Origin: Prevotella sp.
GTDB taxonomy: Bacteria; Bacillota; Clostridia; Oscillospirales; Ruminococcaceae
Length of the DNA stretch: 64,000 nucleotides
Assembly: GCA_023663025.1 (NCBI GenBank)
Contig: JAMPIC010000005.1
Coordinates: 13,735 to 77,734, forward strand
Direction: 5' to 3'
Shown: piece after piece, positions 12,946 through 31,930 of the stretch
Numbering within the stretch: position 1 is the first letter of the stretch
Layout: the number at the start of each line of letters is the position of its first letter
Notes under the pieces: model-generated
Databases searched by the model: none
What the model saw: only the letters and a program-made list of their open reading frames with translations
Told to the model about the DNA's origin: nothing
Position numbers and translations under genes: made by a program

Positions 12946-13021
12946 TGTGACGTATTCAAGAGGTTAAGAAAGCAGACTTTGACCCTGCTGTTCGTTGGTT
13001 CGAATCCAACCGTCACAGCCA
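12946..13021 (+). tRNA. tRNA-Gln (anticodon TTG), CCA encoded
   Basis: Manual cloverleaf, 76 nt in total:
- Acceptor TGTGACG/CGTCACA, a perfect 7 bp.
- D arm TTCA-AGAGGTTA-AGAA.
- Anticodon arm GCAGA-CTTTGAC-CCTGC (loop C-U-UUG-A-C, with an A31*C39 mismatch).
- Variable loop TGTTC.
- T arm GTTGG-TTCGAAT-CCAAC.
- Discriminator G plus CCA.
Collinear with canonical Firmicutes tRNA-Gln. Confidence 0.85.
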
Positions 13022-18998: not shown

Positions 18999-19256
18999 AT
19001 GTGCAAATTATTTGATGAGTGGTCTCCGCAGATTGAAAAATTCTGCAATGAAAACGGTTTTGACTTTGAAAAGGCTAAGAAATTATCGAAAAGCTGGGGA
19101 AAAGACAATTTAGCTTTGCAGCACTACGACCCCGAAAAGGGTAAAATGGGACTGCGCGACGAAACACCTATGCCGCTTGTGCTGCGGATTAAGAAAAACC
19201 CCGATGACACTCTTGAATTTGTTCAGACTGAATACACGAAAAAGTATCTTGTGTAA
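18999..19256 (+). CDS. Hypothetical 85-aa protein, candidate immunity partner of the MuF C-terminal domain
   Basis: The ATG lies 4 nt after the MuF stop and GGAG is upstream. A terminator hairpin follows (AACCGC...GCGGTTTTG, 19268-19299). The function is inferred from position only. Confidence 0.45.
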   Translation: MCKLFDEWSPQIEKFCNENGFDFEKAKKLSKSWGKDNLALQHYDPEKGKMGLRDETPMPLVLRIKKNPDDTLEFVQTEYTKKYLV

Positions 19257-19468
19257 AAATGATATTTAACCGCTTTGAGTTTTCAAGGCGGTTTTGTTTA
19301 TTACTTTGACATAATAAAAAGCAATATACTTTGTGCATTATGTCAATGGAAAAAGTTGCTTTATAATGATACAATTATAACATTTATTGTATACGAATCA
19401 GTATTTATGTCGTTTATTATTACACGAATTAAAAAATAAATTATGTTATATTTTATTCTGATGAAAGA

Positions 19469-19861
19469 GTGAGTGTATTGGTAGAATTTCATGCATGGAT
19501 AACAATACGTCAATCATATTTAAATATTGATGAAGATGACTGTGAATTACAGCGTATTATTTTAAATATTAAAAGAAAAATAAAGGGCAGTATTGCATCA
19601 TTGGTTATAAAAAATGGAGAGTATTGTTTAACAGCACATTCATATTCCAATCATTTGTCTAAAGAATATGAAGAATTTTTTGAAATTGTTGATTTTGTTC
19701 AAAAAGTTGCGGTAGGGAGCTATGGTGTAATATATATATATGATGACGAAAAGTTGGATAAAAATAATTTGTTTCAAGTATATGTCATTAAAAAAGGAAA
19801 ATTACAGATATTGGATGATGTGTATTTATCTCCATTTATACCTGAAGTAGAGGAAAAATAA
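19469..19861 (+). CDS. AT-rich hypothetical 130-aa protein, possible orphan immunity protein
   Basis: The N-terminus (M)SVLVEFHAWITIRQSYLNIDEDD is, from memory, like an immunity-protein family of polymorphic toxin loci (Imm7-like). I have not verified this. Confidence 0.4.
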   Translation: MSVLVEFHAWITIRQSYLNIDEDDCELQRIILNIKRKIKGSIASLVIKNGEYCLTAHSYSNHLSKEYEEFFEIVDFVQKVAVGSYGVIYIYDDEKLDKNNLFQVYVIKKGKLQILDDVYLSPFIPEVEEK

Positions 19862-20235
19862 TATTTTATAACAAAACATTATTTTTGGCAGACTAATAAT
19901 TCTTGACACAATTCTTAATGGTCTTGAAAGCATGTAATTTCCAAAAAACAATTTGTCTTTAAGTGTAGCTCTTGAATTTCTCTTCGGGGTCATATTTTAA
20001 AAATTGTTTCAATAAATTTGTAACTTTCTACAAACTTTTAAAAACTGTGGGAAAATCACACAAAGATAATCTTTATATGAACAAGGTATACAACTGATAC
20101 AAAGTTGTATACCTTGTTTTTGTATATTTTGTTTGAGAGAATAACGCAACTCCTTGCCGTTATCAACCGTGAAGCTCTTTTTCAGTTTTCCGAAATCTTC
20201 TCAAACGCCGCAATAGGTAACAAGCAGGTAACAAA

Positions 20236-25925: not shown

Positions 25926-27605
<1,680 letters not shown>

Positions 27606-27701
27606 TTATACCACATCTTATTTTAAAATTCAATATGGTAAATTGCTAAATTTTATCTGACTTTTTTGACATAATCCGCTAATTTGCCGATTATATCAAA
27701 T

Positions 27702-27866
27702 TTATGCTGACCTTTGAATTTCCTTTCTTATTAACCTTGCGAGAATGTCTTTCAGGCTTTCGCCGTTTAAATTGAATTTGGTAACTACTTCGTATGTAGT
27801 GTACCCTATTTTGTATTTTGTAACTTCCTTTGGTGTATAGGTATTTATATATCCATTTCTAATCAT
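27702..27866 (-). CDS. TnpW-like small transposon protein (54 aa)
   Basis: MIRNGYINTYTPKEVTKYKIGYTTYEVVTKFNLNGESLKDILARLIRKEI matches the 'IG.T.Y.V...F......l.d.l.RLi..E' pattern of small proteins found beside TnpX-type recombinases. RBS GAAAGGAG. Confidence 0.5.
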   Translation of the reverse strand: MIRNGYINTYTPKEVTKYKIGYTTYEVVTKFNLNGESLKDILARLIRKEIQRSA

Positions 27867-27966
27867 TGAACTCCTTTCTGTCAAAGCGGGGTGTGTTCCA
27901 GCGTTTTATCGAACCTCCTTACATTTAAAAATTCACTACAAGGCATAAATATACTTTGTAAAGAAT

Positions 27967-27995
27967 ATTATATTCATTATGCTGAATTTTGTCAA
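27967..27995 (-). promoter_or_regulatory. Consensus sigma-70 promoter driving tnpW and the recombinase
   Basis: The minus strand reads TTGACA (complement of 27990-27995), a 17-nt spacer, then TATAAT (complement of 27967-27972). Confidence 0.55.
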
Positions 27996-28115
27996 GCTTT
28001 TAGAAACAAGTTTACAGAATGTTAATATTTGCCGTTTGTGAGAATTTTCCCGAACGGCGGATACTATGAAATAGTCCTAACCCACTATGACTATTTCCTC
28101 CGTAAATAGTCCTGT

Positions 28116-28200
28116 GGGAAAAACCGTCCTGCGGACGGTTTGGCTGTTCCTCTTGACCCCTATTGCAAAAAATCCTACCGCGTATCGCGATAGGATTTTG
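28116..28200 (-). terminator. Two tandem rho-independent terminators (minus strand)
   Basis: Hairpin 1 is AAACCGTCC-tgc-GGACGGTTT (28121-28141). Hairpin 2 is AAAATCCTAcCGCG-tat-CGCGaTAGGATTTT (28169-28199). Read on the minus strand, each is followed by a run of 5-6 T. Confidence 0.55.
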
Positions 28201-28540
28201 CATTGAATAAGAGCGGTTTTAGGTGAAACCTAAAATTTGGTAAAGGCATATGCACTTTACTGGGTGAAAGTATATGTATACTTTCTATGGCTTGCGAGCC
28301 TATGAAAAAACATTTTAACGGCGAAACCGCACTGCTTACTTAGGCTTTGCCCTAAGTAACGCCATAGTACATATGACATTGCCCTTTAAGGCAATATCAT
28401 ATGTACTGGCGCTCTCCGAGGGCAATATTTGCGGCGGTCTTAGGTGCAGCCGTACCTGCTTAGGTTTTGTCTCAAGTAATTTCATATGTGCAGGTGCTCT
28501 CATAGCGAAAACAGGAAATCAAGTAATGATTTCCTGTAAT
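28201..28540. ncRNA. Candidate structured RNA or long structured 3' UTR (hairpin-dense, ORF-free)
   Basis: No ORF here has an RBS. Perfect or near-perfect hairpins lie at 28217-28235, 28336-28359, 28366-28407 (11+6 bp) and 28511-28537 (11 bp). The region is bounded by minus-strand terminators. Class unknown. Confidence 0.25.
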
Positions 28541-28609
28541 TGCTTCAATATTATTTTTGCCCCATACATTAATTTTTATATTTTTTCGTTGATTAAGATA
28601 TAACTGTAC

Positions 28610-30031
28610 TTAATATGTAACTGAAATAGTAGGTGTGTCAATTCCATTGTAATTATCGTCCTTAATTTTTAAAGTAATTTCAAAATTTTCTATGTCTTCC
28701 GCACAGGAAACATTCGAATCATCAAGATACATATCCCATAATTTGATTTCTAAAATTACTGATTTACCAGCAGAAATAGTTTGACCATAAAAGCTATAAT
28801 CCATCATAAATCCGTTTACAGAAAATGAATCGTATTCATCAGTAATATAAATATCTTTTGTACTGCTGTTTTCGGCTAAAAGCATTATATGTATATCATT
28901 GCTATAAGCGCTGCTGTCGTCAATAGCTTTCTTTGAAACAATCCGTATGCCATTATTGTTATATATTTCCTCACCGGAATTGTCAAAGGACGATTTTACT
29001 TTTGGAATAGTAATTTTAATATCTGAGGAATCAATTATTTTGTCATAACTGTCACCCCGAACTACTAAATTAAATTCTATTTCTCCAATTTTATCTATGC
29101 CATACAAATCCCAAATGTTTTTTTCAATCATATTTGAAAACGCCATATCAACAACACAGCGTTTTCCCATATTAACGGTTTTGCTTGTCCAATTTCCGCT
29201 TTCAATAGTCAAACCATTCAAAGCAATATCACTTATACCAATATTAACAATTTCATCTGAATTGTTTTCAATTTCTAACAGTATAATATCATCACCGTCC
29301 TTATTTTTAAACAACATTTCAGAAATTAGGCGTATTCCATTGACATCATATAGTATATCTTCCGAAGAATAATTCAATGAATAGTCATATTTACTTTGGA
29401 GGGTATTACTTGATATTGCGTCTTTATAAGAATCAATAGTATAATCATAGGAATCATAGGCAGTAGTTTTTATTTGCAACGGACCGGTATAAATTTTATT
29501 GTAATCATCGTCCTCAATTTCAATATCTATTTCGATATCAGCAATTTCATTAATTCCATACAGACTTAATTCATTATAGCTGAATCCTATTGAGTCCATT
29601 GCCTTTTTCCCTGCTGAAACATCGCAATTCAAATAACCGCCATTGTACATATAGCCATTTACAGAATTACCGCTATGTCCCAAAGAGCCGGCAATAAACG
29701 ACAAGCTTTTGTTGCTGTTATTTTCAATCATAAGCTTAAGTTCCGCTTCATAATTATTGTAACTGAGTTCTGTTGCAGTAATTTTTACATCATTTTCGTC
29801 ATAGATAAGTATCTCTTCAATAGTCGCATTTTGTTTGAGTTCGGTTTTGTTCTCTGATTTAGTTTCGGTTTGAGCTGTGTAGGTTTCTTCATATTCTTCA
29901 TTACTTGTTGATACATCCTCATAGATTGCGTTTTCTAATGTTGTATTTTTTGTAGTGTCATTATCTTCATAGCAAGCAGTCATTGTCGCTGCAAGTAATA
30001 TTGTCATAAGTATTACTATTATTTTTTTCAT
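28610..30031 (-). CDS. Lipoprotein with three tandem ~130-aa beta-rich repeats
   Basis: Signal peptide and lipobox MKKIIVILMTILLAATMTAC (start 30031, RBS AAAGGAGG). Three repeats each contain a (L/I)xxENNS...NG(Y/L/F)... core and a Y/DxI.EIE..L.. tail. Confidence 0.75.
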   Translation of the reverse strand: MKKIIVILMTILLAATMTACYEDNDTTKNTTLENAIYEDVSTSNEEYEETYTAQTETKSENKTELKQNATIEEILIYDENDVKITATELSYNNYEAELKLMIENNSNKSLSFIAGSLGHSGNSVNGYMYNGGYLNCDVSAGKKAMDSIGFSYNELSLYGINEIADIEIDIEIEDDDYNKIYTGPLQIKTTAYDSYDYTIDSYKDAISSNTLQSKYDYSLNYSSEDILYDVNGIRLISEMLFKNKDGDDIILLEIENNSDEIVNIGISDIALNGLTIESGNWTSKTVNMGKRCVVDMAFSNMIEKNIWDLYGIDKIGEIEFNLVVRGDSYDKIIDSSDIKITIPKVKSSFDNSGEEIYNNNGIRIVSKKAIDDSSAYSNDIHIMLLAENSSTKDIYITDEYDSFSVNGFMMDYSFYGQTISAGKSVILEIKLWDMYLDDSNVSCAEDIENFEITLKIKDDNYNGIDTPTISVTY

Positions 30032-30144
30032 ACTGATACCTCCTTTCATAAAATTGTTTGAAATAATTAGGTTGCTTGCTAATTTTGCAAGTAAACTCTT
30101 TTCTTTTCCACTTCTGTTCATTATAAAGCTCCTTTTTTCAATAT

Positions 30145-30643: not shown

Positions 30644-31717
30644 TCAATCCTCCCTTTTGTAGTTTTCGCAATAAATTTGGAATGAATTTGCGATATATCG
30701 GAATATGTATACTTTTACATTTTTCTTCTTGCATAAAATATATTCATCACTACGCAATAAAAAATAATCCTTAATGTTATCCAATAAAATTATGTTGTAG
30801 TCTTTTGAAACAATTTCAATTTTGGTCAAAATGCCGCATATTTGCTCAATTTCCCATTGTACCTCAGCAGAGAATGGACTTTTTTTATTCACACAAAATT
30901 TATAAAGGTTTTCAAAACTTTCTGTAAGAACCTTATCTATTTCATTATCCGAATTTTTCACAGTTGTGCAATAATATTTCACGGCATTAATGAAGAATAA
31001 TGTCTCATCGCAAGTTACTGTTGGTTCATCACCTGTCATAAGCCACACAGCAACACCTTCAAAAAATATTACAGATTCCGAAATAACCTTCGAAATAATT
31101 TTATGTATTTCTGTAATTTTAAGCTGTACCTCTTCTGAATAATAGGAATATTTTTCAGCATAAAGTTTTTTGGTATTTTCAAGAGCTTCAATCAAAATAT
31201 CCACTTCTTCGTCTGTAAAAGCTTTACTGATAAGGTCGTCATATTCATCACTAAGGCTTTTTCCAAAGCGAAAATTTTTACCAATTAATGAGAGGTATTT
31301 TATAGTTTTATCATAGTTCCATTTACTGTTTAAGTTAAGAATAATCTCAGGTGTGATACCCGTTTCCAATATAGCTTCTTGGGCATCAATATCCCTGTCG
31401 TACTCTTCTCTGCGCTTTTTTAACTTATTAAGATATTTTTCATGAAATGTTTTATAATTAAAATCAGTAGATTTTCCATAAATAATTTTTTTAATCTCTG
31501 AATTAGTGTACCAATCTTTTTTATTTTTGCAAAGCCCATTATAATCTTTTATCTCTTTTATCATACGGATTTTTTTAATTTCCATTTCATCAAAATGTTG
31601 TGCAATTCCTTGCCCTGTTTTATGAGTATCAAGTATTGCATCTATCCATCCTTGAAGTGTTTGTTTCGGTACATCAAGTTCTTTACTCAATTGAGAAACG
31701 GTTTTGATTTTTTTCAT
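30644..31717 (-). CDS. HTH (MerR/excisionase-like) domain protein with a ~300-aa helical C-terminal region
   Basis: N-terminus MKKIKTVSQLSKELDVPKQTLQGWI (HTH). The remainder is helical with an internal duplication (SEEVQLKITEIHKIISK / SAEVQWEIEQICGILTK). RBS AAAGGAGG. Confidence 0.6.
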   Translation of the reverse strand: MKKIKTVSQLSKELDVPKQTLQGWIDAILDTHKTGQGIAQHFDEMEIKKIRMIKEIKDYNGLCKNKKDWYTNSEIKKIIYGKSTDFNYKTFHEKYLNKLKKRREEYDRDIDAQEAILETGITPEIILNLNSKWNYDKTIKYLSLIGKNFRFGKSLSDEYDDLISKAFTDEEVDILIEALENTKKLYAEKYSYYSEEVQLKITEIHKIISKVISESVIFFEGVAVWLMTGDEPTVTCDETLFFINAVKYYCTTVKNSDNEIDKVLTESFENLYKFCVNKKSPFSAEVQWEIEQICGILTKIEIVSKDYNIILLDNIKDYFLLRSDEYILCKKKNVKVYIFRYIANSFQIYCENYKRED

Positions 31718-31930
31718 ACAGATACCTCCTTTATTTAAGTATAAAACTTACTGAGATCAGAAAGCAATACTATATTTTCAACAAATTTTTACAATGCTTT
31801 TTGTTAAGTATGACAGAAATAAATTGCATATACAAAAGCTGCCGATACATTAGTATAAGTATCGACAGCCATATAATCCGCTGTATTTGTCTTTTAATAA
31901 TATTTTTGAAAAACTTCTACATCGCTGTCA

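Follow-up and report, generated by a model that had tools for sequence, protein, structure and literature searches.

Elements of the Tn4451/Tn4453 family carry TnpX, TnpW, TnpZ (a Mob_Pre protein) and the RSA origin of transfer (oriT). Integrative mobilizable elements (IMEs) with an oriT and no relaxase form a recognised class (PMC5704250). We have analysed a 64,000-nt stretch of DNA, called the window below, from contig JAMPIC010000005.1 of a Prevotella sp. assembly (Ruminococcaceae in the GTDB lineage); it contains a small Tn4451-like integrative element, ∼6 kb long and without a relaxase. Between the cargo gene and tnpW of this element lies a block of hairpins that is conserved in related elements, is built of separable modules and covaries with a strand bias; one of its modules, module B, is akin to sites found upstream of mobC genes. 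The block falls outside all Rfam families and all classical classes of single-strand origins (ssos). We hold, with about even confidence and from sequence comparison, that the block is a row of orphan sites resembling oriTs, carried by a mobilizable element that has no relaxase. To our knowledge, no counterpart of such a hairpin block has been described in Tn4451.

The window element has in common with the Tn4451 family a DUF4368 serine recombinase encoded beside TnpW. Tn4451-like siblings (L001, L011, L013, L100 and L107 among the related loci that we collected) carry Mob_Pre directly upstream of tnpW and a pMV158-like nick motif at the promoter; in contrast, the window element has no Mob_Pre, and its tnpX is situated at the element end with the 3′ end pointing outward. 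No gene for MobC, a PF03432 relaxase or Mob_Pre was found within the 64-kb window. The nearest element types are oriT-only mobilizable genomic islands (MTnSag1/tISCpe8; class IV, PMC5704250) and the oriT mimics of non-mobilizable plasmids in staphylococci. Like the oriT-only islands, the window element is small, combines a recombinase and cargo with a putative oriT, has no relaxase and would depend on a helper acting in trans; unlike them, it has a TnpX-type large serine recombinase and two to three tandem sites that differ in sequence type.

On the minus strand the block consists of a decayed unit, module A, module B, the terminators T1 and T2, and module C (coordinates of all features are given in Table 1). 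A preliminary description of the window, made from the sequence alone, had listed hairpins at 28031-28058, 28081-28118, 28217-28235 (P8 in our notation), 28336-28359 (P3), 28366-28407 (P2) and 28511-28537. All of them are present in the sequence, and the P2 hairpin has 17 pairs including one U.G. The two minus-strand terminators that it had reported, a stem at 28199-28169 followed by UUUUUU and a stem at 28141-28121 followed by UUUUU, both form in the minimum free energy fold; a simple terminator scan missed them, as the stems probably run into the T-runs. The promoter of tnpW at 27995-27967 likewise holds up, with 12 of 12 positions of TTGACA-17-TATAAT matched. The minus-strand fold of the 611-nt block (28000-28610) has an energy of -208.8 kcal/mol vs -136.7 +/- 6.1 for shuffled sequences (z = -11.8); for the plus strand z = -8.8. 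The block had been called free of open reading frames (ORFs); ORFs of 39-76 aa do exist on both strands, and none of them is kept in frame or position in homologous blocks. Three successive repeat units had been proposed as well. Internal repeats (D2-D4, 75-83% identity) bear them out, except that decay has affected the third unit (28510-28431), which has no conserved counterpart elsewhere; from an A-like unit it keeps the 5′ part (GAGAGCACCTGCACATATGA...CTTGAG..CCTAAG), combined with a remnant of a B-type short hairpin and tail (GGCTGCACCTAAGACCGC, 28451-28434).

Relatives of the element were collected through TnpW and TnpX homologs, and homologs of the block were identified by blastn, nhmmer and two covariance models (R1 and R2). 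Homologous blocks beside other TnpX-type recombinases, a search for which the preliminary description had proposed, do exist and show covariation. At least six other TnpX/TnpW elements, from Ruminococcus/Oscillospiraceae, share the sequence 28428-27867 with the window at 72-78% identity. Full-block homologs are present in L012, L006 (L007 and L010 are identical to it over the block), L101 (=L102), L104 and L106; L103 carries the 3′ part, and L105 a B-T1-C version without A. Module A occurs without the other modules in L001, L011, L013 and L107 and, more diverged, in L056. Conservation begins at ∼28428, and 28431-28610 is specific to the window. Beyond these elements, blastn of the block in distant mode gave no match in PLSDB plasmids or INPHARED phages; a pattern for the apex of the long hairpin occurred once by chance among metagenome contigs (L005) and not at all among viral ones, the TACTATGGYGTTACTTA pattern had nine chance matches in viral contigs, and a 55-aa ORF across module A used as a protein query matched nothing.

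In the eight-sequence alignment of module A, 94% of the cells are paired, and four P2 pairs change on both sides (10 cells); this level of covariation was reached in 0 of 500 shuffles. In module B 98.5% of cells are paired. Compensatory changes were observed in P6 (A-U to G-C; the extra P6 copies of L047 also read, by eye, as double changes), in P8 (U-A to C-G in L049) and in P3 (in L056). One-sided changes, read on the minus strand, produce G.T much more often than A.C cells, by 20 to 4 in module A, 9 to 3 in module B and 8 to 0 in T1. The paired cells and the G.T bias together indicate that pairing is selected in a single strand, which is the window minus strand. The bias does not discriminate RNA from DNA, since hairpins of single-stranded DNA (ssDNA) also tolerate G.T wobbles. 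The block is conserved and is not a remnant of a coding region (see below), two of the points on which the preliminary description had staked it, and is therefore a real feature.

The canonical place of an oriT is upstream of the relaxosome operon (R64 nikAB, RP4), and its canonical form is an inverted repeat beside a conserved single-stranded stretch. The covariance model R1, built only from window-type B, found a match in L067 (E ∼1e-6) on the strand opposite to that of tnpX. This site lies 114 nt upstream of a co-oriented MobC gene (PF05713, 28 bits vs the cut-off of 23.2), which is followed by the N-terminal remnant of a relaxase. Many TnpX-family loci have a mobC divergent from tnpW, some of them with a PF03432 relaxase and some lacking one; in L083 the site is followed by MobC/NikA and then by the relaxase (PF03432, 110 bits). 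Directly upstream of mobC these loci all have one layout, starting with a (T)AGCAAGCA box. It includes a long inverted repeat closed by CAAGC/GCTTG, with inner arms that vary by locus and stay complementary, a short hairpin (TTAGGG..CCCTAA, GGGGACACCCC or GGCAGAGGGCGCTGCCCC) and a tail (AAGACC, AAGCCCCGAAT or ACGACCCCGAAT). The subtype of the short hairpin appears by eye to follow the MobC subtype.

From the CAAGC box to the short hairpin with its tail this composite motif spans mostly 77-92 nt, up to 181 nt. A regular expression for the motif occurs at 30 places in ∼1.1 Mb of loci, including window 28297-28207; 20 of the 30 are co-oriented with a mobC-like gene of the same locus and 10 are module B of mob-less elements. 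A profile made with nhmmer from ten mobC-proximal sites matched 35 loci. A MobC-like ORF is directly downstream and in the same orientation in 25 of them; eight, including the tandem sites of L024, L069 and L065, have no detectable MobC-like ORF. The position upstream of a co-oriented mobC-relaxase operon is thus seen in L067 and in these 25 loci, and not in the window. The same site precedes a mobC-like ORF and a relaxase gene in pRUMAL01 of the cultured Ruminococcus albus 7, and a RefSeq-annotated mobC in Enterococcus faecium NZ_LR135359.1; both plasmids are typed as MOBP by MOB-suite. With these MOBP/MobC oriT regions (pRUMAL01, NZ_LR135359.1 and ∼25 TnpX-family loci) module B has in common the CAAGC box, the short G/C-rich or TTAGG-type hairpin, the AAGACC/AAGCCCC-like tail and the span. 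Module A has their long-then-short hairpin architecture: as ssDNA it forms a long bipartite hairpin abutting a short one, as at the L073 and L083 sites. In sibling loci, A and C are preceded by hairpins (GCAGAGGGAACGGCTGCCCC) that resemble the short hairpin of the L054 type.

Several points weigh against the orphan oriT reading. A mob gene is adjacent to the MOBP/MobC regions and none is present in the window. The composite regular expression was written by hand after viewing the sequences and is no independent test, and the mobC-site profile misses both window B and the L067 site at E <= 10; the bridge from B to the mobC-proximal sites is thus one R1 match near MobC plus a hand-written motif. 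The GCTTG partner by which the mobC-proximal sites close their long inverted repeat is missing from window B, where two separate hairpins, P6 and P7, take its place. Module A differs in sequence from the mobC-proximal sites and in no locus stands beside a relaxase gene, so that its assignment as an oriT comes from architecture alone. The nick consensus of RP4/R64, YATCCTG, was not seen. The mobC-proximal sites themselves seem to lie inside the 5′ leader of mobC and may have an RNA-level role there: a promoter-like TTGACT/TTGACG-17-TATAGT/TATATT was noticed by eye ∼230 nt upstream of them. A and B, with the stop codon of a gene on one side and a conserved intrinsic terminator of that strand on the other, are probably transcribed and may function as RNA. 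In the literature searched we found no experimental oriT mapping for the CAAGC-box family of sites; a search with the sequence words of the site returned only unrelated primers, and blastn of the L073 site against plasmids gave no match.

Under the orphan oriT reading the element would have lost, or never had, its own relaxase. We infer that the candidate sites are oriTs, A likewise, and that they are acted upon in trans. Module A, module B and the decayed unit would then be orphan oriT-like sites, each with inverted-repeat hairpins, a short hairpin of the TTAGG/CCTAA type and a conserved tail that is single-stranded. TnpX would excise the element as a circle, and a MobC/NikA-type accessory protein with a MOBP (PF03432) relaxase, provided in trans from a plasmid or sibling element that shares the cell, would recognise one of the minus-strand sites. 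The relaxase would nick beside the short hairpin and pilot the strand into the recipient through the conjugation pore of the helper; the inverted repeats would refold in the transferred single strand and permit termination. If the nick were 3′ of the repeats, tnpW-tnpX would enter the recipient first, which is speculation. T1 and T2 would shield tnpW-tnpX from cargo read-through, and module C with the perfect promoter would control expression of the two genes.

The preliminary description had put a structured RNA ahead of a DNA-level oriT-like site, and it is the latter that better fits the comparative data. As RNA, modules A and B would make a ∼260-nt molecule (28430-28165, minus strand) ending at T1 and originating as the 3′ untranslated region of the cargo gene or by read-through; we regard this as rather unlikely. 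Acting in cis or in trans, it might be a processive antiterminator of the canT kind that carries transcription across T1/T2 into tnpW-tnpX, or a small RNA regulating the element. The strong minus-strand fold, the covariation, the prevalence of minus-strand G.U among one-sided changes in A, B and T1, and a conserved covarying intrinsic terminator directly following on the same strand all stand with this proposal. Module A followed by a terminator is seen in L001, L011, L013 and L107 too, and A starts 35-60 nt past a stop codon with no terminator between in L101, L011 and L013. There is also a precedent, a cis-acting antiterminator RNA of 341-452 nt that precedes terminators in a mobile element (PMC11658703). 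The Tn916 system (canT with the T1 insulator) has, like the block, a structured non-coding stretch of a few hundred nucleotides before terminators that shield mobility genes (PMC11658703); its likeness to the block is positional and not sequence-based, and the position upstream of T1/T2 is all that agrees with an antiterminator. In the window tnpW has its own perfect promoter downstream of T1, which makes antitermination unneeded, and the modules occur in other orientations and contexts: B is inverted relative to tnpX in L067, and it stands upstream of mobC. A terminator-like hairpin separates A from the cargo gene in L006 and in the window. The absence of a conserved promoter upstream of A, the occurrence of A and B each without the other, and the presence of B without a co-oriented upstream gene in L047 and L049 argue against an RNA gene. 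No Rfam covariance model, those of ROOL, GOLLD, OLE, HEARO and raiA included, reaches its gathering threshold for the block; in the whole window the only such match is a tRNA at 12946-13018, and at E <= 10 the region 27500-29000 gives only sub-threshold miRNA and snoRNA look-alikes of the long hairpin. A new RNA class travelling with TnpX/TnpW elements, either as an antiterminator coupling cargo to tnpW-tnpX or as a cofactor of excision or integration, seems to us a little more doubtful again; the likeness to mobC-proximal sites would then mean a shared leader RNA and not an oriT.

The block, or module A by itself, could instead be an sso, with hairpins that recruit RNA polymerase or primase to start complementary-strand synthesis, after the model of ssoU beside oriT/mobM in pMV158 or sso1 in ICEBs1. 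Such ssos are orientation-specific and structured, and can occur in integrative and conjugative elements (PMC4595007). The block is, like ssoA, ssoU, ssoT and ICEBs1 sso1, a strand-specific non-coding multi-hairpin region of a few hundred nucleotides. In the Mob_Pre siblings L001, L011, L013 and L107, moreover, module A is on the mob coding strand, which in pMV158 is the transferred strand (PMC5863519), and a pMV158-like nick region is present at the mob promoter. The known ssos, however, are reported to carry in the stem the RSB motif TTATGCCGAGAAAATTT (ssoA, ssoU, ssoT and ssoW) and, mostly in a loop, the CS-6 motif TAGCGT (PMC4598088, PMC5703833). Neither occurs on any strand in the conserved parts of all eight blocks, with no conserved RSB match within 5 edits and no conserved TAGCG[TA]. 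The lack of similarity to PLSDB plasmids and of a promoter-like -35/-10 pair in the P1/P2 stem (by eye) also goes against an sso, and the kinship of module B to mobC-proximal sites favours an oriT; we consider the sso improbable. Slightly more improbable is a set of duplex binding sites for MerR-like or other helix-turn-helix (HTH) regulators, TnpW or TnpX, by which the palindromes would control the tnpW-tnpX promoter or recombination with no single-stranded role. In L012 and L006 the P6 sequence forms a 20-bp palindrome with no mismatch, and relatives have an operator-like TTCACTATAGTGAA palindrome related to the repeats at Mob_Pre promoters. Yet the upper parts of the stems in A and B change in sequence and keep complementarity, and asymmetric changes lead to G.T and not A.C, neither of which is expected of operators; the 17-bp arms of P2 far exceed a typical operator half-site. 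Plausibly this explanation fits module C only, which is near-invariant and has three GACTATTT copies 16-20 nt apart just upstream of the promoter. That the block is a decayed coding region (of HTH or Mob genes, for instance) or a chance cluster of hairpins has a negligible probability in our view. Elements of the L001 type do have HTH and Mob_Pre genes between module A and tnpW. In tblastn, however, the sibling HTH and Mob proteins reached a best E of ∼1 against five blocks, ORFs are unconserved, substitutions track base pairing and the fold is far stronger than that of shuffled sequences; we have excluded a decayed gene on the basis of the tblastn and ORF comparisons.

Table 1. Features of the window element and of its hairpin block
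Feature	Positions	Strand	Remarks
MerR-like protein	30644-31717	-	
Lipoprotein-like protein, 503 aa	28610-30121	-	Cargo gene
Probable terminator of the lipoprotein gene	28511-28537	-	11-bp hairpin then UUUUCGCU; not conserved in relatives
Decayed third unit	28431-28510	-	Internal repeats D2, D3, D4; not conserved in L012, L006, L101, L104
Module A	28312-28428	-	R2 matches in 11 loci; ssDNA fold z = -7.1
P1, outer stem of A	28413-28408 / 28363-28358	-	
P2, inner stem of A	28406-28390 / 28383-28367	-	17 bp
P3, short hairpin of A	28357-28338	-	Abuts P1
P4, small GC hairpin of A	~28330-28316	-	
Module B	28205-28311	-	R1 matches including L067; composite motif; ssDNA fold z = -6.3
CAAGC box of B	28295-28289	-	Within P5 (28300-28289)
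P6 of B	28285-28266	-	
P7 of B	28260-28240	-	
P8, short hairpin of B	28235-28217	-	
Conserved tail of B	28216-28209	-	CCGCTCTT
T1 terminator	28169-28199	-	13-14-bp stem + U6; compensatory changes; in every full-length homolog
T2 terminator	28121-28141	-	9-bp stem + U5; window-specific
Module C	28000-28120	-	CCCAC..GUGGG hairpin (28118-28081); three GACTATTT/AAATAGTC copies; variable hairpin (28058-28031)
tnpW-tnpX promoter	27967-27995	-	TTGACA-17-TATAAT, 12/12; highly conserved with ~40 nt upstream
tnpW 5′ leader	27867-27966	-	Contains CTTGTAGTGAAT
tnpW, 54 aa	27702-27866	-	Weak PF14202 match; ribosome-binding site AAAGGAG; homologs found
tnpX-type large serine recombinase	25926-27563	-	Resolvase + Recombinase + Zn_ribbon + DUF4368 domains

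The conserved terminator T1 was found in seven loci, as a GC-containing stem with a U-run right behind it. Its pairs 129-137 and 130-136 differ between loci and remain paired, and CGCG in T1 changes to CGUG or CACG. At the position of T2 relatives have the TTCACTATAGTGAA palindrome and a GCAG..CTGC hairpin. By analogy with the insulator terminator of Tn916 (PMC11658703), T1 and T2 may insulate tnpW-tnpX from transcription of the cargo gene. Module C, in which no covariation was seen, is found only in full-length homologs, and its GACTATTT/AAATAGTC copies occur nowhere else in the element; it lies upstream of the tnpW promoter and probably serves there for protein binding or regulation.

The start codon of tnpW is the ATG at 27866 behind AAAGGAG, and the intergenic region therefore extends over 27867-28609. 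The CTTGTAGTGAAT in the tnpW leader is a degenerate copy of the CTTATAGTG(T/A)AT motif at the sibling Mob_Pre promoter/oriT; an exact TATAGTG does not occur in the window, where only this copy remains. The site of MobM in pMV158 is AAGtaTAGTGTG/TTATAC (PMC5863519), and the siblings of the L001 type have at the Mob_Pre promoter TTATAGTGTATTATA, identical to the pMV158 nick region in 13 of 15 positions. The tnpW promoter region itself (AAGCTTGACAAAAT...TATAAT, window 27967-28005) shares AAGCTTGACAAA and a CTTATAGTGAAT-like motif with the sibling Mob_Pre promoter/oriT (L100 575-640, L001 8505-8560), and, judging by these shared motifs, the mob-less elements may derive from Mob_Pre-bearing ones by deletion. 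Part of the tnpW leader (27937-27957) is similar to the P6 sequence and could pair with the 3′ arm of P6; this similarity is not kept in relatives and was treated as a chance one.

Further observations concern sites of the module B type. Tandem copies of the mobC-proximal site without a detectable mobC are located in L065 (4607-5040, three copies, with a flavodoxin-like gene next), L069 (5522-5774, two) and L024 (4808-5069, two); these arrays are orphan like that of the window, but they lie on the opposite strand relative to tnpX. At L034 150-200, L047 7085-7130 and L049 6840-6870 an orphan B-type site is followed by a strong ribosome-binding site, AAGGAGG, and a mini-ORF of 2-5 codons beginning with ATGAAA, which looks like the stump of a deleted mobC. 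In L082 (634-733) the long inverted repeat is chimeric, with a 5′ arm of the L073 type (TTGTGAATT) and a 3′ arm of the L083 type (AAAATACA), so that the hairpin is broken; it looks like the outcome of recombination in the loop between two site variants. Within the window, the P7 sequence (GTAAAGTGCATATGCCTTTAC) resembles by eye the MOBQ nick region ATAAGTGCGCCCTTAC; this candidate was dropped, as P7 is not kept in distant relatives of B.

Rearrangements were seen at module A too. In L013 (9490-11110) a second serine recombinase, truncated at the N-terminus and sharing 35% identity with TnpX, comes directly after tnpX. Behind it stands module A reduced to its 3′ half, the start of which falls exactly at TATGGCGTTACTTACG; next is a second copy, 87% identical, of the terminator-HTH-Mob_Pre-tnpW-tnpX series. 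This breakpoint inside module A hints that A may be a hot spot of recombination or nicking. The minimal element L104 (6955-9727) has no cargo: its block begins ∼180 nt from a pstS-like host gene, and its module A has lost 11 nt (CCTCGGAGAGC) at the start. Directly upstream of module A each element has a different cargo gene, often a large one (window 28610-30121; L006 4306-7017; L001 3504-7421; L013 165-5189). The products include a lipoprotein-like protein, a leucine-rich repeat (LRR) protein, an S8 peptidase and a 1674-aa protein, and cargo exchange seems to occur right at the upstream edge of module A.

The element makes up a low-GC island at ∼25.85-32.05 kb of the window (GC 0.29-0.44 vs ∼0.5 in the flanks). 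On the minus strand its gene order is MerR-like protein, 138-aa protein, 503-aa lipoprotein-like protein, hairpin block, TnpW-like protein and TnpX-type recombinase; an exact-protein look-up of the window TnpW and TnpX matched no record. A perfect 16-nt inverted repeat, AAATACAGCGGATTAT / ATAATCCGCTGTATTT, is present at 27583-27598 and 31873-31888. One copy is near the left end of the element; the other is between tnpW and tnpX, just downstream of the tnpX promoter (TTGAAT-17-TGgTATAAT), upstream of which there is a third, imperfect copy (AAATTAGCGGATTATG, ∼27655-27670). The repeat motif also flanks the tnpX promoter in L034 and L047, and L101 has it at the left end. TnpX or a regulator may bind to it, which would link the element end with expression of tnpX. 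Elsewhere in the window, GC drops sharply a second time, to 0.30, at 19-20 kb (19001-20000).

The hairpin block is thus a previously unannotated, real and conserved feature, and its likeliest explanation matches current ideas on hitchhiking elements. Were the block an RNA instead, it would define a new class of mobile-element RNA. If it is an array of orphan oriTs, it would provide a clear genomic case, from gut and rumen Clostridia, of a relaxase-less integrative element that keeps only cis transfer sites. The tandem array of different units recurs in sibling elements, and sites of several sequence types would broaden the range of usable helper relaxases. The comparison also yields a widespread candidate signature for oriTs, made of a CAAGC box, then a hairpin and then an AAGACC-like tail, which lies upstream of mobC in plasmids of Ruminococcus and Enterococcus and could serve to annotate oriTs. 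For Ruminococcus/Oscillospiraceae an array of orphan oriTs would bear on the spread of surface-protein cargo, a lipoprotein here and LRR and S8-peptidase proteins in siblings, and, more generally, on the idea that hitchers with only an oriT account for many 'non-mobilizable' islands.

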